Shown: positions 24,396 through 39,788 of the stretch, piece by piece | Numbering within the stretch: position 1 is the first letter of the stretch | Layout of the letters: every line of letters starts with the position of its first letter | Virus record (IMG/VR): IMGVR_UViG_3300036841_000201 | Location: 1 to 59,862 of that record | Source: a virus | Lineage: Duplodnaviria; Caudoviricetes | DNA: 59,862 nucleotides | Strand: one strand, 5' to 3' | Notes under the pieces: model-generated | What the model saw: the letters and a program-made list of their open reading frames with translations, nothing else | Database searches by the model: none | What the model was told of the DNA's origin: nothing | Position numbers and translations under genes: made by a program

Positions 24396-24877
24396 TCCAG
24401 CCCCCCGTCGGTAGCCGACGGACCACCCGGTGAGGGCGTACCGACAGACTGGGTAGGCGCGCTGTCGGCCGGAGCCGGGCGGTGGGAGCGCTTCGCGGCG
24501 GGTTTGGCGGTGTGCGTCGGTCGCGGTGAGGCGTAGCGGGCCGACTCCGGGGATTGGGTCGTGCCCGGTTCAGCGACAGCGGGCGCCTGGCGGTGTCGTG
24601 GCCGTACGCGGGCGGGCAGGACCGGCGCCATGATCCGGGCAGGGTGGCCGCTGCGCACGATGGTCATGCGGATGGGCTGATGATCGAGCGTGACGGCGAT
24701 GCTGACGTCGTAGGCGACGGCGGCGAGTAGGAAGATCAGGCCCAGCCGGAGTGGGTGTGCGCGAAGCTCGGCGAGGAACCGGGCCAGCCAGCCGGGCGCC
24801 GGGATGTGGTTGTGAGTCTTGTTGCTGTCCGGTGTGCGGTTAGGCTGCCAGCCGGACGCCCCGTAGTCCATCGTCAT
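24392..24877 (-). CDS. Membrane protein with Pro-rich tail
   Basis: Single TM segment; stop overlaps the GT2 start. Confidence 0.55.
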   Translation of the reverse strand: MTMDYGASGWQPNRTPDSNKTHNHIPAPGWLARFLAELRAHPLRLGLIFLLAAVAYDVSIAVTLDHQPIRMTIVRSGHPARIMAPVLPARVRPRHRQAPAVAEPGTTQSPESARYASPRPTHTAKPAAKRSHRPAPADSAPTQSVGTPSPGGPSATDGGLE

Positions 24878-24903
24878 GTCCGCATATTGCGGACTTGAAG
24901 GGC

Positions 24904-24940
24904 TCCATGTCAAGTGGAATGCGTACACTTGTTACATGGA
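24904..24940. other. Candidate attP site
   Basis: Imperfect inverted repeat TCCATGT-CAAGTG...CACTTG-TT-ACATGGA; AT-rich; abuts the integrase start. Confidence 0.5.
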
Positions 24941-26360
24941 ATCTCGCCCCGTGCGCGCCGCCTCATACTGCCGGCTGTCGCTCGCCCGCATGGGCGACAC
25001 CACCAACGTCGATGATCAGGACCGAATCAACCACCGCCTGGCCAAGGCGCGGGGTTGGACGATCGCGTCGGAGCATGTCTACAAGGACAATTCGCGCTCG
25101 GCGTGGCAGCGGGACCGTAAGCGGCCGGGCTGGGACGCGATGGTCGCCGCGGTAGAGCGGGGCGAACTCGACGCCATCATCATCTACCACGGCGACCGGA
25201 TCGTCCGCCAGCCGCGCGACATGCTCGACCTGATGGACATGGCCGCCGGGCAGGGCATGCGCCTTGCCTCGCCCACCGGCGAGTACAACCTCGACGATCC
25301 CGACCACCAGATGATGCTTACCTGGATCGCCGCGCGGGCGAAGAACGAGATTGATCACCTGTCGCGGCGGATGAAGGAAGGTCATCGGCGCCGCGGTGAA
25401 CGCGGGTACGTACGCGCGGGCGGGCGCGGCGGGCGCCCGTTCGGGTTCGAGAAGGACTGCGCCACCCATGTACCGGATGAGGTCGAGCTGATCCGGGAGG
25501 CTGCGCGCCGGGTGCTCAACACCGAGCCGGTCGGCGCGATCGTGGGGGACTGGAACGCACGCGGCCTCACCACCACGGCGGGCGGTCCATGGACGCATAC
25601 GACGCTGAAGAAGATGCTCATGCGCCCACGGCTGGCCGGGCTGATGCCGGACGGCGAGCAGCAGGCGGCGTGGGAGCCGGTGCTGGCCGCCGATCGGGAC
25701 GCGGCGGTGGAGATGTGGCGCAGCCTGGTCGCGGTGTTGAGCCAGAAGGCCGGCGATTTCGGCTACGCGACGAACGTGCGCAGGTATCTGCTGTCGGGGA
25801 TCGCGGTGTGCGGGTCGTGTCAGGCGCCGGTCGCGATCCGGCACAACCGGCGGGGGAAGACGCTGCTCGGGTACGGGTGCGTGAACCCCGACTGCTCGCG
25901 GAAGGTGCACCGCAAGGCCGAGCACGTGGACGGCTACGTGACGGGCCGGCTGGTCGAGCTGTTGAACGATCGAGAGTTCCTGGCGGGCCTCGGCGAGGGT
26001 CGTGACCCGGAGTTGGCCGGGCAGATCCAGGCGCTGGAGGTGCGCAAGGCCCAGACGAAACGGCAGCTGGAAAACCTCGCGGATCATCCGAACCTCACCC
26101 CGGACCTGCTGATCAAGTCGTTGGCCTCGTTCGACCGGCGCATCGGCGAGTTGCGCGAGCGGGTCAGGGTGACTGAGCAGCAACGTCTGCTGATCGAGTA
26201 CGCGGGTCTGACCTTGGAGAGGTGGCTCGATCTGCCGCTGGAGATGCAGCGGGCTCTGATCGTGGCTGGCTACGCGCTGATCGAGATCGAGCCGACCGGC
26301 CGGCGCGGTCCCGGGTTCGACCCGGACTCGGTCGTACTGACCCGCCGGCCGGTCGGCTAG
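24936..26360 (+). CDS. int: Large serine recombinase (integrase)
   Basis: YCRLS catalytic motif, DN..SA...RPG, DRI.R, recombinase domain, LLSGIAVCGSC zinc ribbon. Confidence 0.93.
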   Translation: MESRPVRAASYCRLSLARMGDTTNVDDQDRINHRLAKARGWTIASEHVYKDNSRSAWQRDRKRPGWDAMVAAVERGELDAIIIYHGDRIVRQPRDMLDLMDMAAGQGMRLASPTGEYNLDDPDHQMMLTWIAARAKNEIDHLSRRMKEGHRRRGERGYVRAGGRGGRPFGFEKDCATHVPDEVELIREAARRVLNTEPVGAIVGDWNARGLTTTAGGPWTHTTLKKMLMRPRLAGLMPDGEQQAAWEPVLAADRDAAVEMWRSLVAVLSQKAGDFGYATNVRRYLLSGIAVCGSCQAPVAIRHNRRGKTLLGYGCVNPDCSRKVHRKAEHVDGYVTGRLVELLNDREFLAGLGEGRDPELAGQIQALEVRKAQTKRQLENLADHPNLTPDLLIKSLASFDRRIGELRERVRVTEQQRLLIEYAGLTLERWLDLPLEMQRALIVAGYALIEIEPTGRRGPGFDPDSVVLTRRPVG

Positions 26361-27777: not shown

Positions 27778-28029
27778 GTGTCGAGCCAGCGAAAACGCCC
27801 CAAGATTCTCAACCACGAGCCTGTGGCGGTCACATACGCACGCGAGAAGGCCGGGCTGACCAAGCGGGAGTTGGCGGAGCGACTCGGCATCTCAGAGCAG
27901 CTAATGGGCGAGATCGAGTCCGGTTGGCGCAATGCCACCTCGGCGACGCTGCTCAAGCTCGCTGAAGAACTGAACTGCCCCGTGGTCGTCCTGGAACGCA
28001 AGCGCTCCCCTGAGGCGAGGACGGCATGA
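27778..28029 (+). CDS. Cro-like HTH protein
   Basis: AREKAGLTKRELAERLGISEQLMGEIESGWR. Confidence 0.85.
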   Translation: MSSQRKRPKILNHEPVAVTYAREKAGLTKRELAERLGISEQLMGEIESGWRNATSATLLKLAEELNCPVVVLERKRSPEARTA

Positions 28030-28422: not shown

Positions 28423-29510
28423 TGAACACCACCACCCCGGGCATGCGCATCGACGAGATCCGGGTGATCGATCGCCACCGCACCGACTTCGGCGATCTGA
28501 ATGCGCTCGTCGAGTCGATTCGTGAGCTGAGCCTGCTTCAGCCAGTCGTCGTGACCCGGGATGGCCGCCTGGTTGCCGGTCAGCGCCGGCTGGCGGCGTG
28601 CCGCTCATTGGGATGGGAGGCCATCCCGGTTGCGTATGCCGAGAACCTCACTGATGCGGTTGAGCTGTTGAAGGCCGAGCGCGACGAGAACGTGTGCCGC
28701 AAGGCCATGGTCCCGTCAGAACTCGCCGCCCTGGGTGAGGCGCTGCACGCGTTCGAGGCCCAAAACGCGAAGGAACGTCAACGGCAGGCAGGTCGCGAAC
28801 ACGGCCGTGGAATAGCTAGTGACCCGAAGGGCACAAGCTATTCCGGCAATAAGACCCGGGCGCTGGTTGGCCAAGCGCTAGGGATGGCCGGTTCCACGTA
28901 TTCCGACCTGCGTTCCGCCTACCGCCTCGCGAGCGACACAGAAGCCCCAGATGCCGAGCGCGAAATTGCCCGCGACGCACTGAAAGAGATGGACCGCACC
29001 GGTCACGTCAAACCGGTCGTGGAACGGATGCGCAAGCGTCTGCGCAATCAACGCGGCGTCGAGGAGCGTAAGCAGCCGAAACCGCCCAAGGCGGAACCCT
29101 CGCAGGAGAGCACGGAAGCCGGCGAGTGGATCCCCCCTAAGGGCGACAGTAGCCAGAAGGCGGCGGCACGGCGCCGCGACTTGATTCAGGAACTGGCCCG
29201 GCGCGGCTATTCATCGGAGCAGATCGGCGATCGGATCGGCATGCGTCCGGAGACGGTGCGCCGTATCGCAAGGGAAGAGCGTACTTCGATCTCGGCCGAC
29301 GAAGCGCTCAGGAAGACCCACAGAAAGATCGACTCTAACCGCATCATTCGGGAGACCGTCGCCGGGTTCGAAGGTCTTGAACTCGCGTTGAGCCTCGTCG
29401 ACTTCGACGCGCTCGACACCTACGAGATACCGAACTGGACCGCCTCCCTCAGCGAAGCAATCCGGATCCTCAACCGACTGAACAAACAACTGAAGGAGAT
29501 GGTCCAGTGA
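28422..29510 (+). CDS. ParB-like N-terminal domain protein with HTH
   Basis: LVESIRELSLLQPVVV...LVAGQRRLAA...EN..RK motifs. Confidence 0.85.
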   Translation: MNTTTPGMRIDEIRVIDRHRTDFGDLNALVESIRELSLLQPVVVTRDGRLVAGQRRLAACRSLGWEAIPVAYAENLTDAVELLKAERDENVCRKAMVPSELAALGEALHAFEAQNAKERQRQAGREHGRGIASDPKGTSYSGNKTRALVGQALGMAGSTYSDLRSAYRLASDTEAPDAEREIARDALKEMDRTGHVKPVVERMRKRLRNQRGVEERKQPKPPKAEPSQESTEAGEWIPPKGDSSQKAAARRRDLIQELARRGYSSEQIGDRIGMRPETVRRIAREERTSISADEALRKTHRKIDSNRIIRETVAGFEGLELALSLVDFDALDTYEIPNWTASLSEAIRILNRLNKQLKEMVQ

Positions 29511-30319
29511 CCAACAAGCCTACCGGCAAGCGCATCGAGCGGGTAGCGCGTCTGCGCTGGGTGCCGCTGAACAAGATGCGGATCAATCCGCTGGCGCAGC
29601 GTGAACTCAAGCCCGCGCGTGTCGACAAGCTCGCGTCCGAGATGGACATCGAGCAGCTCGGCTACCCGACCGTCAGCCTTCGCAGCGACTGGTACTACGT
29701 CATCGACGGTCAGCACCGGATCGAGGCGTACAAGAAGTGGCTGGGCGACGGGAACTGGGAAGACCAGCAAATCCAGTGCTCCACCTATGACGGCCTTACC
29801 GAGGAAGAGGAAGCGGAGATCTTCCTCAAGCAGAACGACACTCTCTCGGTGGCAGCCTTCGAGAAGTTCCGCATCGCGGTCAAGTCGGGCCGTCCAGAGG
29901 AAACCGACATTGACCGGATCGTACGCGCCGCAGGGCTGCGGATATCGCGGGCGCAGGGCGGGTCGATCAGCGCAGTTAGCACCCTTCGAAAGGTGTACCG
30001 CCGGGGGCCTGCGGTGCTCTCCAAGACTCTGCGGATCGTCTTTCCCGCGTTCGGCGATGCGGGGCTTGAAGCTCCGATCATCGAGGGGATAGGGCTCGTC
30101 TGCCACCGCTACAACGGCGAGGTTGACGAGGTAACTGCGGTTATAAAACTGACCAAGATCCATCGCGGCGCTATTGGCCTGCGGGATGCGGCCGAGAACA
30201 TTCGGCTGAAGACCGGTAACCCTCGCGCGCACTGCTATGCGGCAGCGGCGATCGACGTTCTGAACCGCGGAAAGGGCGGCAAGAAGCTGACGCCCTGGTG
30301 GCGGACCGACGACAACTGA
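29507..30319 (+). CDS. ParB/Srx-fold protein (DUF6551-like)
   Basis: QR...YVIDGQHR...EEAEIF motifs. Confidence 0.7.
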   Translation: MTNKPTGKRIERVARLRWVPLNKMRINPLAQRELKPARVDKLASEMDIEQLGYPTVSLRSDWYYVIDGQHRIEAYKKWLGDGNWEDQQIQCSTYDGLTEEEEAEIFLKQNDTLSVAAFEKFRIAVKSGRPEETDIDRIVRAAGLRISRAQGGSISAVSTLRKVYRRGPAVLSKTLRIVFPAFGDAGLEAPIIEGIGLVCHRYNGEVDEVTAVIKLTKIHRGAIGLRDAAENIRLKTGNPRAHCYAAAAIDVLNRGKGGKKLTPWWRTDDN

Positions 30320-33408: not shown

Positions 33409-33762
33409 ATGACGATGACCGCCGACCTGCGCACCCAAGCAGCGGACCTACTCGACCGGGCCGCACAGCACATCGAGCGCTACGGCTGGGCTCAAGACTG
33501 CTGGTACGTCCGGGAGCCTGACCGGCTGCCGTGGGAATCACCAGCGTGCGCGAGCGGGGCTGTCTACCTGGCAGCCGGCATCGACCCGTACCGCTTCGGC
33601 CCGCACGGGGGACGAGAGGACCCCACCGTTCTGGCGCGAAGCATTCTGGCCGAGTACCTGGACTCCACGAGTGTCGCGCTGTGGAACGACGACTGGGCCA
33701 CGACCAAAAACAAGGTCGTCACCTCACTGCGTGAGGCTGCACGGCAGGCGAGACAGCCATGA
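33409..33762 (+). CDS. DUF6197-like protein
   Basis: AAQHIERYGWAQ...CASGAV...WND motifs. Confidence 0.6.
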   Translation: MTMTADLRTQAADLLDRAAQHIERYGWAQDCWYVREPDRLPWESPACASGAVYLAAGIDPYRFGPHGGREDPTVLARSILAEYLDSTSVALWNDDWATTKNKVVTSLREAARQARQP

Positions 33763-34115
33763 GCGCCGCCGTCGACGCCTACATCGCGGACTTCCGTGTC
33801 CGGGTCGCCGTCGTCACCACTGCCGCATTCCAGGCGATGAAGACCGCCGCCCCGGACACCGGCCGGGAGTCACTGACGCGGTTCGAGATCGGCGACCGCG
33901 CGTACGCGCTGCTGCGCACCCCCGAAGAGGGGCAGGCGCTTCTGGAGGACTACGAGGACGCCGTACGGGTCCGCGACGGGGTTGAGGCCGGCGTCGTGCA
34001 CTGGTCCGAGGTCGAACCCGAACTAGTCGGCCCGCGGTACAGCGAGGACGCGTTCGACATCGCGGCCGGCCGGGCCGATGACGCAGCGTACGCGCTGCTG
34101 GCGGGGAGGCTGTGA
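33759..34115 (+). CDS. Hypothetical protein
   Basis: Coupled ORF. Confidence 0.6.
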   Translation: MSAAVDAYIADFRVRVAVVTTAAFQAMKTAAPDTGRESLTRFEIGDRAYALLRTPEEGQALLEDYEDAVRVRDGVEAGVVHWSEVEPELVGPRYSEDAFDIAAGRADDAAYALLAGRL

Positions 34116-34381
34116 TGGCCCTGACCTGGCGTGAGGCCGACTACGAAACCCGGGTGCGGAGCGTACAGCCCGCCCTCAGGGACCTGTACATCCGGGCCAT
34201 CATCCACCCCGACCCGGTCCGCCAGGCCGACATGCGCACCTCCATCGCTGATCTACGCACCGCCATCGCGGTCGCATGCGACGTGCCGGCCGGCGACATC
34301 CACCCGGCGCACGGGCTGCCCGCCGTGGTGCGCGACGGGTGGACCGCGTACGGGCTGACTGCCGCGAAAGGCGGTGCCTGA
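34112..34381 (+). CDS. Hypothetical protein
   Basis: Coupled ORF. Confidence 0.55.
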   Translation: MMALTWREADYETRVRSVQPALRDLYIRAIIHPDPVRQADMRTSIADLRTAIAVACDVPAGDIHPAHGLPAVVRDGWTAYGLTAAKGGA

Positions 34382-35223
34382 TGGCCTTCGACGGCAAAAG
34401 CCTCGACGACTACGTGGACGTGGCCGAGCGAATCGCCATTTTCCGCCAGCAGTATCCCGAAGGGTCGCTGCAACCTGCCGACATCGCACAGCCCTACCGC
34501 ATCGAAACGATCAAGGGCTTCGATAAGAACGGCAACGAGATCGCACAGACGTTCATCGTGTACGCCGCCGCCGCCTACCGCACGCCGCTCGACGAGCGGC
34601 CCGGCATCGGGCTCGCGTACGAGATCTTTCCCGGCCGCACCCCGTACACCCGCGGGTCGGAGCTGATGAACGCCGAAACCTCCGCGTGGGGCCGGGCGAT
34701 CATCGCCGTAGGGGCTGCGGACTCCCGTGCGGGAATCGCCTCGCAGCAGGAGGTACGGAACCGGCAGGCCGAACGCGAGGACGGTCGCAACAAGGACGGC
34801 TCCAAGCCGCGACGAGGCGTGCCGGACGAGCAGTTCGAGGCCGAGGGGCGGATGACCCGCCAGCAGTCGGCCGACCACGGACGGCTTGCCAAGGAGACCC
34901 AGGAGAACCCGAAGAAGGCCGAGCGGCACCGGGGCCCGGTCGAAGAGGACCCGTGGGCCGACGGCAACGGCATGGTCAACCGGCCCCAACTCAAGCGGAT
35001 CGGTGACCTTTTCGACCAGGCGCAGTGGAGCGACGAGGCCGACCGGCTCCGAGCAGCCTCGCAAATCGCGGGTCGCGAGCTGAAGAACGCCTACGACCTG
35101 TCCAAGGACGAAGCCGAGCAGTTGATCGCCGCGCTGCTGCTGGTGTGCCAGTCCGATGACCCGGCTCAACGCCTGAGCGATCTGGTGGCGCAGGTCGCCG
35201 AGCAGGAAGGAGGCCAGTCGTGA
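34381..35223 (+). CDS. Putative ssDNA-annealing recombinase (Sak/Rad52-like)
   Basis: DYVDVAERI..F...YP.G...NAETSAWGRA...IAS..EV motifs. Confidence 0.65.
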   Translation: MAFDGKSLDDYVDVAERIAIFRQQYPEGSLQPADIAQPYRIETIKGFDKNGNEIAQTFIVYAAAAYRTPLDERPGIGLAYEIFPGRTPYTRGSELMNAETSAWGRAIIAVGAADSRAGIASQQEVRNRQAEREDGRNKDGSKPRRGVPDEQFEAEGRMTRQQSADHGRLAKETQENPKKAERHRGPVEEDPWADGNGMVNRPQLKRIGDLFDQAQWSDEADRLRAASQIAGRELKNAYDLSKDEAEQLIAALLLVCQSDDPAQRLSDLVAQVAEQEGGQS

Positions 35224-35570
35224 CCGAGCCCGTCTTGAACCCGGTGGACATCGAGCAGCAGATCTCCGACGTCACAGATCAGATCGCCCGCGGCGTCCGC
35301 ATCGTCACCGACGCCGAACGCGACGCCGCCCGCCTGCGGCGCGAATACGACCGCGCGTACGCGCACGCCTACAAGGACGCGGACGGGCCCATCCCGGAGC
35401 GCAAGTACACCGCGGACCTAAACACGATGGACGAGCGGGAGGCGGCAGAGAACGCCGAGATCGCGTTCCGGCACGCGCAGCGTACGGCGAAGGCGTTGGA
35501 GCGGAAGCTGGACGCGCTGCGCTCGCAGGGTGCGTCGGTGCGCGCGATGTACGAGGCGGTGCGCTCATGA
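35220..35570 (+). CDS. Helical hypothetical protein
   Basis: Coupled ORF. Confidence 0.65.
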   Translation: MTEPVLNPVDIEQQISDVTDQIARGVRIVTDAERDAARLRREYDRAYAHAYKDADGPIPERKYTADLNTMDEREAAENAEIAFRHAQRTAKALERKLDALRSQGASVRAMYEAVRS

Positions 35571-36004
35571 TACGCCGCCGCAAGAGCCTGAAGCGTCAGC
35601 CGCTGCGCCGTACGCCGATGCGTCGCCGCTGGCGCGACACCGGGCCCGATGAGGCCACGCGCGAGCAGGTGGGCGCACGGGACATCTGGTGCTGCGTCGT
35701 CTGCGGCCGTCACCTCGGCGCGTCCGGTTCGACCCTGCATCACCGCCGTAACCGCGGCAGCGGGGGCAGCAGCGACCCCGCGATCAACCGGCCGTCGAAC
35801 CTGCTGACCGTGTGCGGGTCCGGCACGACCGGATGCCACGGCTGGATCACCAACCGGCCTGGGGAGGCCCGCGACGCCGGGTACGTCGTGTCGCTCAACA
35901 GCACCGACAACCCGCGGGACGTGCCGGTCCGGCACGCGCTGTACGGACTGGTGTACCTCGACGACAACGGCGGCTTTGAGCATGTCGGGGGCGATGCCGC
36001 GTGA
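35567..36004 (+). CDS. HNH endonuclease-like protein
   Basis: CVVCG...HHRR...NLLTVCGSGTTGCHGWI. Confidence 0.8.
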   Translation: MIRRRKSLKRQPLRRTPMRRRWRDTGPDEATREQVGARDIWCCVVCGRHLGASGSTLHHRRNRGSGGSSDPAINRPSNLLTVCGSGTTGCHGWITNRPGEARDAGYVVSLNSTDNPRDVPVRHALYGLVYLDDNGGFEHVGGDAA

Positions 36005-36255
36005 TGCTGCCGCTGAGTTTCGTATCCCGTGACGGTCTGGCCGGGCTCGGCTTCCGCGTCCTGCGCTGCGCCCACTGCGGCCAGGACCGCCCGGCCGCCC
36101 GCTTGTTCGACGGCGAAGTCTGCGCCGTCTGCCTCCGGCCGGTCGACGAGTTGTCGGCGGTTGAGCAGCGCCTGTCTGACCACATTGAGGCCGCCACCCG
36201 GCGTGCCATTGACCGCCCCGCCGACCACACCCACTCCGGGAGCGATGCCTCATGA
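36001..36255 (+). CDS. Small zinc-finger protein
   Basis: CAHC...CAVC. Confidence 0.55.
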   Translation: MMLPLSFVSRDGLAGLGFRVLRCAHCGQDRPAARLFDGEVCAVCLRPVDELSAVEQRLSDHIEAATRRAIDRPADHTHSGSDAS

Positions 36256-36833
36256 GCAAGACCACCAAGACCACCCGGCGGGCCACATCGCAGCCGACGC
36301 CCAAACATGGCACGTCCGCCGGGTTCAACCTTCGTCACCTCGTCCGCGATGTCGTCGCATCCTCCCCGTCGCCGGACTATCCGCTGATCGCCAAGGAGGC
36401 CGCCCGCCGGATCCCGCCCGAGCACCTCGAAGCCGCGTTGATAACGGCGTTGACCGAGTACGTGCGGCACTACGCGACGACGATCCGCCCGACGATCTCC
36501 GTCCTGGCTGCGCCCGTCCAGCTCGCCGAGTCGGCGGCCCCGGCCCGGCGCCCGGGTCAGTCGCCGAAGGTCATCGGGATTCGGCAGGCGTGGCGACGGT
36601 ACCTCGACGCCCCGTTCGGCACGGCGACCGGGCAGAAGTGGCTCGGCGACTGCGACGCCGCCGACCTCATCTTCATCGCTGAGGATCTGGAGAAGAAGGC
36701 CGCCGAGAATGTGGCGAAGGCGACCGGGATCCGTGGCCTGCGCGAGGAGATGGGCCGCCACAAGGCCGCCCGGGTCCGTGACCTCCCTGACGTGGTGCTG
36801 GCCGCGTACCTCGCTGGAGGTGCGGCGGCATGA
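36252..36833 (+). CDS. Tas-adjacent hypothetical protein (carries one guide unit in its 5' end)
   Basis: 193 aa; ATGA-coupled to the Tas ORF. Confidence 0.7.
   Translation: MSKTTKTTRRATSQPTPKHGTSAGFNLRHLVRDVVASSPSPDYPLIAKEAARRIPPEHLEAALITALTEYVRHYATTIRPTISVLAAPVQLAESAAPARRPGQSPKVIGIRQAWRRYLDAPFGTATGQKWLGDCDAADLIFIAEDLEKKAAENVAKATGIRGLREEMGRHKAARVRDLPDVVLAAYLAGGAAA
36273..36324 (+). ncRNA. TIGR-like stem-loop unit 0
   Basis: ACCCGGCGGG-CCA-CATCGCAGC-CG-ACGC-CCA-AACATGGCA-CG-TCCGCCGGGT. Confidence 0.85.
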
Positions 36834-38095
36834 GCACCCCACAGACAACCCCGCAGGCCAGCCTGGGAACGACAACCAACGAGATCCCGCCTGCGGGGTC
36901 ACAGCATGGCCGGGACCAAAAGGCAAGCGCGGCCCAAATAATGGCCGTCCCGGCCACCGACTTCCCCGGCGACCAAAGTGACATCGACGCCCAAGCATGC
37001 AGCGTCGCCGGGGACTCAGGCCAGCCGACGGCCATCGGAATATCGCCGCCCATGGCAGGCGCGCCGTCGGCTGATGACACCCCCCGGGCGGCCACCGAGC
37101 TGGCGAGAACCATCGCGCAACCGCCGTCCGGGGGGAAGGAGCAGGGTCCGCCAGCGACCAACGCCTTTCCGCCGCCCAAACAACTGGTGTCGCTGGCGGA
37201 TCCATTCCTCGCCCTCGCCGCTGACGTCGTGGACGACCTCGAAAAGGTCCGCATCGCCAACGAGAACCGCCTTCGGCAACTCACTCGCACCGAGACCGAC
37301 AAGGACGGCGAAGAGCGCGGGTTCGGCCTGACCGAGGACCACCCGGACGTGGCCCGCCTGTCCGCCCTCGTGGACATGCTTGGCCAGGCCGAACACCAGG
37401 CCGTGTTGAACCTTCAGCGGCTGATGCGTAAGCATCCGCTCGGCCCGTGGATCAAGGCCACGGCCGGCGTGGGGGAGAAGCAGGCCGCCCGACTCCTTGC
37501 CGTCATCGGTGACCCGTACATTCGCCCTGAACTCGTCCGCGATGGCGTCGTCGAGCCCGCCCGACCGCGCCGCGTCTCGGAGTTGTGGGCGTACTGCGGC
37601 TATCACGTACTTCCCGCTGGCTACGCCATCGACGACACCCAGAGTCGATCCGCCAGCGGGACCGACTTCTCTGCCGACCATGGTGAGGCCGATGCCCAAA
37701 AGGCTGGCGTCGGCGGGGAGCAGGCGGGCCACTCCGACCATAACCTGAGCGATTTCCCTCGACAACGCGTCGGAGTGGCCCCAAAGCGCCGGCGTGGCAC
37801 CCGCACGAACTGGTCCACGACCGCGAAGACCAGGACGTTCCTGATCGCTGAGTCGTGCATCAAGCATCGCCAGTCCCCATTCCGCGCTGTGTACGACGCC
37901 ACCCGGGAGAAGTACGCCGACGCAGTCCACGCCATGCCGTGTGCACGCTGCGGCCCGTCCGGCAAACCGGCCCCCGCCGCCTCCCCGCTCAGCGACGGCC
38001 ACAAGCATGCCCGGGCGATGCGCGCCGTCTCCAAAGAGATCTTGAAAGCGCTGTGGCGTGAAGCCCGACGCATCCACGAAGGAGGCGACCGGTGA
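36830..38095 (+). CDS. TasA-like Nop/IS110-related RNA-binding protein (no RuvC/HNH domain evident)
   Basis: Coiled coil LEKVRIANENRL; HPLGPWI....GVGEKQAARLL; SELWAYCG; KRRRG...NW; FRAVYD..REKY; GHKHARAMRAVSKEILKALW. Confidence 0.8.
   Translation: MSTPQTTPQASLGTTTNEIPPAGSQHGRDQKASAAQIMAVPATDFPGDQSDIDAQACSVAGDSGQPTAIGISPPMAGAPSADDTPRAATELARTIAQPPSGGKEQGPPATNAFPPPKQLVSLADPFLALAADVVDDLEKVRIANENRLRQLTRTETDKDGEERGFGLTEDHPDVARLSALVDMLGQAEHQAVLNLQRLMRKHPLGPWIKATAGVGEKQAARLLAVIGDPYIRPELVRDGVVEPARPRRVSELWAYCGYHVLPAGYAIDDTQSRSASGTDFSADHGEADAQKAGVGGEQAGHSDHNLSDFPRQRVGVAPKRRRGTRTNWSTTAKTRTFLIAESCIKHRQSPFRAVYDATREKYADAVHAMPCARCGPSGKPAPAASPLSDGHKHARAMRAVSKEILKALWREARRIHEGGDR
36848..37203 (+). ncRNA. TIGR-like stem-loop array, units 1-6
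   Basis: Six units (36848-36899, 36907-36956, 36963-37014, 37022-37073, 37080-37135, 37144-37203), each stem-CCA-N9-CG-N4-CCA-N9-YG-complementary stem. Confidence 0.9.
37612..37781 (+). ncRNA. TIGR-like stem-loop array, units 7-9, inside the Tas coding region
   Basis: Units 37612-37661, 37667-37720 and 37726-37781 with the same spacing; one CTA and one CCC box variant. Confidence 0.85.
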
Positions 38096-38427
38096 GGGTC
38101 CGCATCCCCAAGCCCGTGAACCAGGCGCTCGACCGCCCCGAGGCGCTCGCCGCGGTGACCCTGCTCGCCGTCGGCGCCATCGTCGGCGCCGCAGCGGCCA
38201 TGAGCGGGTTGGCCGTGTACGTCCTCGGTGCCGCCACCGGCCTGCTCGCGGCTGGGCTCATCTACGGGGTCGCCACCGTCCGCCTGCTCGCCGACCGCAA
38301 CGCCCTGTTGGAAGAGGTCGGCCACCTCGGATACGAGCTTCGCAAGGCCAAGGCCAGCAGTTTCGCCGCCGCCCACGAACCGACAACCCGACTCCCCGCG
38401 ATCACTACTGAGAGGGGAAAGCAGTGA
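38092..38427 (+). CDS. Membrane protein
   Basis: Two hydrophobic segments; coupled to the Tas stop. Confidence 0.65.
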   Translation: MRVRIPKPVNQALDRPEALAAVTLLAVGAIVGAAAAMSGLAVYVLGAATGLLAAGLIYGVATVRLLADRNALLEEVGHLGYELRKAKASSFAAAHEPTTRLPAITTERGKQ

Positions 38428-38897
38428 CTACCGAACCCACCGCACCGCCGCTGGGTACCGACACCTTGACTTGGCTGCGGGACAGGGCCATTGAGGCAAA
38501 CGACGACCTCCCGCGACTGCGGCAGCAGGTAGCCGAGTTGGCCAACCAGGAGCGGATTCTCCGCGAGCAACTCGCCGTCGTCGCGCGAGACGGACTGGAG
38601 GCACAAGACCATCTCCGCAACGCGGAGTTGAACGCCGCGAACATCCCGCCGTTCCTGGACGCATCTCGCCGCGCCGCCGGAGTGGAGCTGCCCGCGCGCG
38701 ATGCCGAGCCGCGACCGACCGAGGCGATCCCGACCGTCACCGCCGAGTTGCCGTTGGGTTTGGCTCAGCCGCGTACGGCGTCGTCGATCGCCAACCAGAT
38801 GCAATCGGCGCTGTCACCCGAGGCACTCGCCGAAGCAGCCGCCAAGGACGGTGGTGCGCCCTTTCGCGACGACACCGAGGACGGCCCGGATGAGTAG
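38424..38897 (+). CDS. Hypothetical coiled-coil protein
   Basis: Coupled ORF. Confidence 0.6.
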   Translation: MTTEPTAPPLGTDTLTWLRDRAIEANDDLPRLRQQVAELANQERILREQLAVVARDGLEAQDHLRNAELNAANIPPFLDASRRAAGVELPARDAEPRPTEAIPTVTAELPLGLAQPRTASSIANQMQSALSPEALAEAAAKDGGAPFRDDTEDGPDE

Positions 38898-39788
38898 GCG
38901 TGGACCGCGACCGCGCAAGGTCACGCGCCTGACGCTGCTGCGGGTGCTGGTGCTGGTGGCGCTGGCGCGGGCCAGCTACCCGGTGCGGGTGCGGCTGCGT
39001 GCCCAGCACCCCGGCCGGCGCGTGAAGGCGGTGACGGCATGATCGCCATCGCTGTCGCCCTGCCCGCCGTCGTGCTCGCTGGCCTCGCCGCCGTACGGGT
39101 GCTCCAGCGCCGCGCCGCCGAGCGCCGCAAGTGGGCTCGCATCGTCGCCGTGGTGGAGGCCAGTGCCGCCGACGTGTGGGACGCCTTCGACGCGCTCGAT
39201 CGCGCCCTGGACGAGGAGCGGACGTGACGTGGGGCTACGGCTTGGCGATCATCGCCGCCGGCACCGCCGCGGTCTGGACCGCGTACAAGCTGCTGCGGCA
39301 CAACCGCCGCCGGGCCAAGACATGGGCGAGCGACCCGCTGCCCCGCCGTCCTCTGCCAGCGCACCTACGCCGCTTGTCGGGCATGCCTGGCCACCCTGAG
39401 CGGGTCCGGGACTGGCCCGGCTACGCCGATGCCTGGCACCAGCTTGTCGTCCAACTCGCCGTCGAGGTCTACCAGCAGCAGCAGGACGGCGGTGAGCGGC
39501 CATGATCCACCACCTGCCTGACCCGAGCGTGTGGGACCTGATCGGCGGCGGGCTCATCTCCCTGGCCGCCGTAGGGATCTGCTGGCGTTTCCTCGGCTGG
39601 CCGCATGCGGACGACAGCGACACGGCGAGGAGGCAGCCGTGACGATCTTCCTTCAGTGCATGTCCTGCTTCGCCGCCGCGGTCCTGCTCGCCGCTCTGGT
39701 GGCGCTGGTGATGTACGCGCTGATCAGGTCGCGCTCCCAGGGTGACAGCCGCCCCGAGATCACCGACGAAGACGGGAACCTGCCATGA
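38890..39788 (+). other. Run of five small membrane-protein genes (38890-39042, 39039-39227, 39224-39505, 39502-39642, 39639-39788)
   Basis: Each has one hydrophobic segment; successive ATGA/GTGA overlaps. Confidence 0.55.

Follow-up and report, generated by a model that had tools for sequence, protein, structure and literature searches.

A probable stem-loop TIGR-TasA system with guides inside coding sequence in a temperate actinobacterial phage

What kind of system places ten RNA hairpins, each carrying two short spacers, inside the coding sequence of a phage? The question is raised by a locus at 36252–38095 of IMG/VR virus record IMGVR_UViG_3300036841_000201 (positions 1 to 59,862, hereafter the window), a complete virus genome of 59,862 bases with direct terminal repeats and a G+C content of 67.9%. 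The locus consists of two open reading frames (ORFs), P0002 and the downstream P0001, and of ten stem-loop units that lie within them. A preliminary description, made from the letters alone, had read it as an RNA-guided system of the TIGR-Tas kind, with a nuclease-less protein of Nop/IS110 type and dual-spacer guides. TIGR-Tas systems are compact RNA-guided DNA binders or cutters that require no protospacer-adjacent motif (PAM) and are of current engineering interest. The account of Faure 2025 (PMC12045711) describes stem-loop TIGR arrays with two spacers of 8–12 nucleotides (nt), a box C (CCA) and a box D (UG), variable palindromic stems and a nuclease-less TasA protein, and that of Xu 2026 (bioRxiv 10.64898/2026.09.09.750476) counts 2,559 stem-loop arrays. 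A stem-loop TIGR-TasA system, carried by a temperate actinobacterial phage, is in our view very likely what the locus encodes. The plan of the guides, the homology of P0001 to Tas proteins and the lack of a recognizable nuclease domain all support the assignment to this type, which is already in print.

Ten dual-spacer hairpins with covarying stems

The array comprises ten hairpin units, all on the + strand from 36273 to 37781 (Table 1), each with a stem of 9–14 base pairs (bp) closing a 32-nt loop of the form CCA-N9-CG-N4-CCA-N9-YG. Of the 20 instances of the 3-nt box C, 18 read CCA, and of the 20 instances of the 2-nt box D, 19 read CG and one reads TG. This architecture had been proposed in the preliminary description together with a list of spacer pairs, all ten of which we reproduced letter for letter. 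It also withstood a strict definition of a unit, which calls for a box score of at least 9/10, two 9-nt spacers, 31–35 nt in the loop and 8 or more stem pairs. Applied to the whole genome, this definition returned ten units on the + strand, none on the − strand and none outside the array on either strand, whereas 40 dinucleotide-preserving shuffles averaged 0.4 units and never exceeded 3. The genome-wide scan that had been suggested as a check, with an exact regular expression for the loop, gave 12 matches over the window, 8 of them within 36283–37709; chance would provide 1.16 (standard deviation 1.2, largest 5), and a count of 12 was reached in 0 of 100 shuffles. Relaxing the expression brings in the degenerate units U7 and U9 and yields 25 matches in all, among which only the ten units have a stem of at least nine pairs that abuts the loop without offset.

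The stems themselves covary. When the ten units are aligned without gaps, all 90 cells of the nine inner stem positions are base-paired, and 11 of the 12 stem pairs change on both sides. The covariation score is 0.826 versus 0.230 in shuffled alignments, with 0 of 500 shuffles scoring as high and with slid controls at 0.07–0.21. The terminal stem appears in the minimum-free-energy structure of all ten units, with z-scores of −2.1 to −6.0. Codon phase varies among the units (1,1,2,2,1,1,1,2,2,2 for the starts of U0 to U9), which are therefore RNA or DNA repeats, not peptide repeats.

Table 1. Features of the locus. Positions refer to the window; residue and codon numbers refer to the encoding ORF.
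Feature	Positions	Strand	Remarks
P0002, 193-residue ORF, partner upstream of tasA	36252..36833	+	PHROG 4604 match; homologs upstream of tas
tasA (P0001), nuclease-less Tas protein of 421 residues	36830..38095	+	Sequence and fold matches to TasR/TasH
TasA wedge-loop insertion, residues 262–318	37613..37783	+	Carries U7–U9; splits Nop-type C-terminal domain
tigRNA unit U0	36273..36324, loop 36283–36314	+	10-bp stem; z −2.5; P0002 codons 8–24
tigRNA unit U1	36848..36899, loop 36858–36889	+	10-bp stem; z −4.7
tigRNA unit U2	36907..36956, loop 36916–36947	+	9-bp stem; z −2.9
tigRNA unit U3	36963..37014, loop 36973–37004	+	10-bp stem; CTT at 5' stem base; z −4.0
tigRNA unit U4	37020..37075, loop 37032–37063	+	12-position stem, 11 pairs; z −3.9
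tigRNA unit U5	37080..37135, loop 37092–37123	+	12-bp stem; z −3.7
tigRNA unit U6	37144..37203, loop 37158–37189	+	14-bp stem; second box D TG; z −5.1
tigRNA unit U7	37612..37661, loop 37621–37652	+	9-bp stem; first box C CTA; z −5.3
tigRNA unit U8	37667..37720, loop 37678–37709	+	11-bp stem; CTT at 5' stem base; z −2.1
tigRNA unit U9	37726..37781, loop 37738–37769	+	12-bp stem; second box C CCC; z −6.0

Elsewhere in the window, a lone hairpin on the − strand (34975–34944) has an 11-pair stem and a loop of CCA-N9-CG-N5-CCA-N8-CT. It fails the strict definition and is probably due to chance.

A Tas protein without a recognizable nuclease

We compared the 421-residue product of P0001 with known proteins by sequence and by predicted fold. 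A phmmer search against all PDB sequences matched only TasR (9mty, E = 5.9e-8) and TasH (E = 1.6e-5), and a Pfam scan of the ORF found no family at E ≤ 1, PF01548 included. PHROG 4285, a family labelled 'transposase', matches residues 122–418 at 7e-95, and both the PHROG and the PDB matches are confined to these residues. An AlphaFold2 model built from a 46-sequence alignment has a core with a predicted local distance difference test score (pLDDT) above 90, made up of a coiled coil (residues 125–152 and 172–201) and a helical C-terminal domain that extends to residue 416. Two stretches, residues 1–102 and 262–318, are disordered in the model, the latter with a pLDDT below 50. When this model was searched with Foldseek, the top ten rows were all TasR or TasH (E = 1.6e-7 to 1.1e-5), followed by the IS110-family recombinases ISCro4 and IS621 at about 1e-2 and then by Nop5, Nop56/58 and Prp31 (E = 0.16–2), with Nop5 and Nop56 aligned over about 150 columns.

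By homology and by modelled fold, then, the ORF is a Tas protein of the TasA type. The Nop-like fold and the coiled coil that the preliminary description had predicted were both recovered; its IS110-type label was not, as the protein belongs with Tas proteins proper in both kinds of comparison. With no Pfam family matched and residues 1–102 disordered, TasA has no nuclease domain, which agrees with the earlier remark that a DEDD RuvC domain is missing. The last helix spans residues 389–416 and leaves a tail of five residues, which fits the absence of a C-terminal Y/H processing loop that Xu 2026 reports for stem-loop Tas proteins. The disordered insertion at residues 262–318 aligns between TaTasR residues 212 and 216 and is thus located inside the wedge segment, which the text of Xu 2026 gives as G210–K230.

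Four residues of the C-terminal domain, H367, C371, C374 and H391 (window positions 37928–38002 for residues 367–391), are invariant in 46 of 46 aligned members of the TasA family. The segment that carries them corresponds to a gap in TaTasR and to 'insertion 2', and, judging from the alignment, the pattern looks like a small, clade-specific zinc-binding knuckle.

Guides written inside coding sequence

All ten units fall within predicted disordered coding segments: one in P0002, six in the N terminus of TasA and three in its wedge loop. The preliminary description had left this placement of every guide in coding sequence unstressed. U0 occupies a low-confidence N-terminal extension of P0002 that is missing from many P0002 homologs. 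U1–U6 span TasA residues 7–125, with the 3' arm of U6 coding for the first conserved core residues (120–125), and U7–U9 span residues 261–318, which correspond to the disordered wedge insertion. The G+C content at third codon positions is 0.76 and 0.69 in the guide-bearing parts versus 0.83–0.88 elsewhere, and codon choice is therefore overridden there. Guides so placed have a precedent in Xu 2026, where stem-loop tigRNAs are described inside tas coding sequences, in disordered regions and with the frame unbroken, including an intragenic tigRNA in the wedge loop of the TasA of Bifidobacterium longum (BlTasA).

We asked whether the guide-bearing parts are read as protein. In the window, the TasA frame is open through these parts, whereas the other two frames contain 2 and 3 stops. 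We extended the comparison to 36 sources with 223 units, namely the window, 28 related loci (L002–L029) and 7 further viral loci. Ahead of the conserved core, the tas frame runs open for a median of 139 codons, versus 47 and 32 for the two alternative frames, and in 27 of the 36 sources it is the longest of the three. Because this frame stays open across the sources, the N-terminal guides are probably translated through. U7–U9 must be translated, because they are situated between essential parts of the TasA fold. The true start of tasA is not certain, because the gene call in the protein database begins at Met38 (P0003, 384 residues). The in-frame ATG codons of Met38 (36941) and Met75 (37052) lie inside spacer B of U2 and of U4, respectively.

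Units of the same kind are intergenic in some relatives. In the Mycobacterium phage Tripl3t (L005, 2812–3151), an annotated 340-bp 'intergenic' gap before gene 73 holds at least three tigRNA units, and upstream of the core 113 codons of the tas frame are free of stops, versus 10 and 3 codons in the other frames. Given these units and this open frame in the gap, the deposited start of Tripl3t gene 73 may be too far downstream.

Stems kept in place and spacers replaced across an actinophage clade

To place the locus among its relatives, we searched protein, phage and bacterial genome collections. The Tas family comprises 1,991 proteins at E ≤ 1e-3 among 7,999 candidates scored, with many invariant core residues and with Streptomyces, Streptosporangiaceae and Nonomuraea as named sources. 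Using tblastn, we found homologs in 90 deposited phage records (83 of Mycobacterium, 5 of Gordonia, 1 of Rhodococcus and 1 of Arthrobacter), all of them below 60% identity and annotated as hypothetical protein, transposase or DNA-binding protein. A further 24 loci lie in bacterial genome contigs, mostly actinobacterial, the best being in a metagenome-assembled genome (MAG) of Streptosporangiaceae at 58% identity. IMG/VR holds 7 more loci and no close sibling phage, the best TasA identity there being 51%, and megablast of the locus against deposited phages gave no match. On these homologies, the TasA clade is widespread among phages and prophages of actinobacteria, with cultured phages of Gordonia and of Mycobacterium among its carriers. 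Many of the TasA-bearing phages grow on the laboratory strains Mycobacterium smegmatis mc2 155 or Gordonia terrae 3612, which makes experiments in a native host straightforward, and their tasA genes, labelled 'hypothetical protein', 'transposase' or 'DNA binding domain protein' in GenBank, could be re-annotated. In the Gordonia phages, the tas genes lie just downstream of the switch formed by repressor, Cro and antirepressor.

The arrangement of guides recurs with the protein. Units on the same strand adjoin tas or lie inside it in 27 of the 28 loci L002–L029 and in 7 of the 7 further viral loci, with 148 and 65 units, respectively, on the tas strand versus 5 and 0 on the opposite strand. Among the 158 units of the window and L002–L029, the loop is 32 nt long in 143 and the boxes read CCA/CG/CCA/CG in 108, so that CG as box D is the norm of the clade. 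The earlier observation that CG mostly stands where UG is canonical was therefore sound, and it extends well beyond this phage. Complementarity between position 9 of spacer A and position 9 of spacer B, found in 53 of the 158 units (34%), was considered as a sign of overlapping half-sites and rejected as evidence for them; positions 3 and 6 are similar (36% and 38%), and because A and B are 18 nt apart, the pairing looks like an effect of codon-phase composition.

Several stems of the window recur collinearly in relatives whose TasA is 49–58% identical. Locus L006 shares the stems of U2, U3 and U7, and locus L046 those of U1, U3, U4, U5 and U7, with 16–18 of 18 stem-proximal bases in common. 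Inside these stem-matched pairs, the spacers share only 2–8 of 18 bases, against a background of 4.8. Across all sources, there are 270 unit pairs with 16 or more of 18 stem bases in common, and their spacer identity centres on 4–6 of 18; the exception is a group of 16 pairs with 16–18 identical spacer bases, which we read as duplicated records. Complete 18/18 stem matches to the window were seen 4 times, compared with about 0.6 by chance, a figure that is itself an estimate for G+C-rich stems. Because the matching stems are collinear, their orthology is likely. Taken together, these comparisons indicate that the stems are conserved by position while the spacers have been completely replaced. 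The AG, PAG and PG residues that are conserved in the otherwise unalignable N terminus of Tas look as if they are encoded by the stems.

The same can be followed among three cultured Gordonia phages, Spooky, BENtherdunthat and LonelyBoi (L002, L003 and L004), which have near-identical stems at matching positions and unrelated spacers; their shared arm pairs begin, for example, CCAGCAGCAG and CCACCCCGACGG. Two further loci, L014 and L025, are near-identical TasA loci from one study that were binned into a Rhodanobacteraceae MAG and an Intrasporangiaceae MAG, respectively, and the Rhodanobacteraceae label looks like the mis-binning of an actinobacterial phage contig.

How the locus would work, and what else it could be

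We reasoned that expression, processing, dimer binding and repression would follow the published TIGR-Tas systems. A rightward transcript over 36252–38095 would carry the ten hairpins, each with a 32-nt loop that sits on a unit-specific stem and presents a pair of 9-nt spacers bounded by box C (CCA) and box D (CG), and TasA would be made from the same transcript as its guides. By analogy, TasA would dimerize through its coiled coil and bind both of a hairpin's symmetric box C/D pairs; the hairpins would be excised as RNAs of about 50–60 nt, probably by a host RNase. Each ribonucleoprotein (RNP) would then open an 18-bp DNA site, with spacer A pairing on one strand and spacer B on the adjoining part of the other, in keeping with the tandem-strand targeting rule described in Faure 2025. 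Because A and B would pair with adjoining parts of opposite strands, the site would read A followed by the reverse complement of B, an order that also derives from the 'C − 5' rule and the 8-nt 3' overhangs given in that paper. With no nuclease, TasA would only bind and bend DNA, and would block transcription or replication of the target. For a TasA, Xu 2026 presents spacer-dependent repression together with an electrophoretic mobility shift assay. Both Faure 2025 and Xu 2026 describe the natural targets, the biological role, the maturation of guides and the acquisition of spacers as unknown.

Several results weigh against a guide system of this kind. The phage's own genome contains no site with at most one mismatch to a guide (both half-site orders, gaps of 0–2, up to 3 mismatches allowed); matches with two or three mismatches number 6 and 3 non-self sites in the two orders, close to the roughly 2.5 per order estimated for chance at up to 3 mismatches, and two matches of U4 are the array itself. 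An exact scan of IMG/VR for spacer A, 0–2 nt and the reverse complement of spacer B, carried out with five of the ten guides (U0, U1, U2, U5 and U8), gave 2, 2, 7, 4 and 0 loci, respectively, mostly with a gap of 1–2 nt. All of these matches were judged to be chance; those of U2 are in phages of 36–46% G+C and those of U0 in phages of 48–49% G+C, and those of U5 have gaps of 1–2 nt and fall in a common coding string for Ala-Glu-Leu-Ala-Leu-Arg. U1 matched in 0 of 5 genomes that bear related prophages, and U5 in 0 of 161 sampled genomes of the class. A comparison of all 223 guides with 364,690 compiled bases, at up to one mismatch, returned only three loci that had previously been fetched with the same patterns, and the swapped-order control returned none. 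This negative result is weak, because five of the ten guides were scanned in IMG/VR and one guide each against the bacterial genomes, and because the host is not identified.

Other points on the same side concern the units and their expression. The boxes of two units are degenerate (CTA in U7 and CCC in U9), and the spacers of U7 are partly self-complementary, the minimum-energy structure pairing one with the other; given its degenerate first box C and these spacers, U7 may be decayed. CUU at the stem base is a published processing mark of stem-loop TIGR-TasA guides, and, in raw counts, only 3 of the 10 window units and 69 of the 223 clade units have the corresponding CTT at their 5' stem base. 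A scan of 33500–39500, of a type that is weak for actinobacteria, found 0 sigma-70-like promoters and 1 terminator-like site, the latter on the opposite strand, so that a separate guide transcript is not evident. The one sequencing run found to contain the stretch is a DNA run, which may be the source sample, and no RNA run contains it. An Rfam search over 35500–38800 gave no match at E ≤ 1.

The failure to find targets, and the confinement of all ten units to two coding sequences, would be accounted for if the hairpins were cis-acting structures of the tasA mRNA, such as RNase sites, translation brakes or stability elements, with the boxes bound by protein solely for autoregulation, the spacers amounting to free sequence and no DNA being targeted. 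Some autoregulatory effect is likely in any case, because excising the guides would destroy the mRNA. Regulation in cis would nevertheless leave unexplained why 223 units from 36 sources retain 9-nt spacers, an 18-nt offset from A to B and the boxes although their spacer sequences are fully replaced, a combination that is the signature of guides; moreover, according to Xu 2026, DNA binding and repression by homologous stem-loop TasA systems depend on the spacer. We therefore regard a purely cis-acting role as improbable. If, instead, the hairpins were incidental and the repeats served to encode a low-complexity peptide in a disordered tail, the in-frame translation of the units, at least of U7–U9 in the wedge, would fit, but the differing codon phases, the covariation of the stem arms as base pairs, the overridden codon choice where guides lie and the intergenic units of some relatives all contradict such a role, to which we give virtually no credence.

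The protein invites a further comparison, for PHROG 4285 and several GenBank records call its homologs 'transposase' and IS110-family structures are its next-best fold matches. On that footing the locus could be a decayed, non-functional transposase of the IS110 family, its DEDD RuvC domain lost and the hairpins being bridge-RNA-like remnants. Tas structures, however, match with E values about 10^5-fold better than those of the IS110 family, and the family has 1,991 members whose core retains many invariant residues, as set out above. There are ten tandem units rather than one bridge RNA, and the arrangement has been kept across phages and prophages of many actinobacterial genera. Decay from a transposase is accordingly highly improbable, and a stem-loop TIGR-TasA system remains the reading that we prefer.

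Relation to known systems

The nearest described systems are those of BlTasA and of PlTasA, from a Peromyscus leucopus gut contig, for which Guan 2026 (bioRxiv 10.64898/2026.08.11.744272) reports a cryogenic electron microscopy structure with a stem-loop guide. By their descriptions, they share with the window the same nuclease-less protein of coiled coil and Nop domain, tandem hairpins with unit-specific stems, guides both upstream of and inside tas, a short C-terminal tail and, in BlTasA, a guide in the wedge loop. The locus is closest in layout to BlTasA. The window system differs from both in having CG rather than UG as box D, in belonging to a clade of high-G+C actinobacterial phages, in carrying all ten guides inside ORFs, one of them in a neighbouring gene, and in having a conserved upstream partner gene.

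More distant systems share single parts of this plan. TaTasR (PDB 9mty) and SpTasH (PDB 9w04 and others), the best matches of the protein, have in common with it the CCA box C, 9-nt dual spacers and the tandem-strand rule. They differ in their RuvC or HNH nucleases, in guides of 36 nt that have conserved edge and loop repeats where the window units have stems, and in a Y/H processing loop that the window TasA is without. IS110, IS621 and ISCro4 (PDB 8wt6, 8wt9 and 9t56) likewise combine a coiled coil and a Nop-like RNA-binding half with programmable RNA loops, but these recombinases contain a DEDD RuvC domain, use one bridge RNA with two loops and recombine DNA, none of which is seen in the window system. 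Box C/D RNPs (Nop5, Nop56/58; PDB 3nvk and 3pla) have a Nop fold and two guides per RNA bounded by motifs of the box C/D type. The fold match to them is distant, the window units have no K-turns and their boxes are not RUGAUGA and CUGA; archaeal and eukaryotic box C/D RNPs, moreover, act on RNA, not DNA, and have L7Ae and fibrillarin as partners, neither of which is seen with the window system, although no search of the genome was aimed at them.

Systems of this kind were published in 2025–2026, and the locus is a new example of them and not a new principle; a textbook stem-loop TasA system is now placed in a complete temperate phage genome. What is added here is the distribution among actinophages with cultivable relatives, the fixed stems with replaced spacers, the conserved partner gene and the invariant His-Cys-Cys-His pattern. 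Our literature search, which lay outside Table S1 of Faure 2025 and the supplements of Xu 2026, gave no paper treating Tas in actinophages among the matches listed; Faure 2025 alone brought TIGR-Tas and mycobacteriophage together, and there only in citing a review.

Genomic setting and a conserved partner gene

The carrier is a temperate, actinobacterial phage. A serine integrase is encoded at 24876–26360 and a helix-turn-helix regulator at 27778–28029. After this regulator, genes run rightward in a long block that includes a ParB-like gene, HNH endonucleases, DNA methyltransferases and another regulator, which is WhiB-like, and both ORFs of the locus lie within it. The 'early operon' of the preliminary description has gene order as its sole basis. 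Each of the two ORFs begins with an ATGA overlap of start and stop, the stop codon of P0002 overlapping the start of tasA, and a GGAGG motif stands 9 nt 5' of the tasA ATG.

P0002 matches PHROG 4604, a family of unknown function, at 5.7e-15, and has no match in Pfam. A homolog with 27–41% identity lies directly upstream of tas in 20 of the 28 related loci. The AlphaFold2 model of P0002, a confident one (pLDDT 83), consists of two helical parts with a variable linker between them. Searched with Foldseek against the PDB, it matched nothing at E ≤ 0.001; a wide structural alignment gave a best Z of 5.0, to a generic helical hairpin only, and no protein-atlas cluster was matched. The family could be an accessory factor of actinophage TasA systems. 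Tentatively, and with considerable doubt, we suggest that the hairpins are positionally fixed 'sockets' in the ORFs whose spacers are replaced, and that the P0002 family is an accessory factor for guide maturation or spacer renewal. If true, a role of P0002 in these processes would address how TIGR arrays gain new spacers.

P0002 is different from the ParB-like partner that Faure 2025 describes in operons with some tasA genes. The window has a ParB-like gene of its own at 29507–30319 on the + strand (PHROG 1033, 2.7e-23), which belongs to the rightward block and is not adjacent to tasA, lying 6 kb upstream of it.

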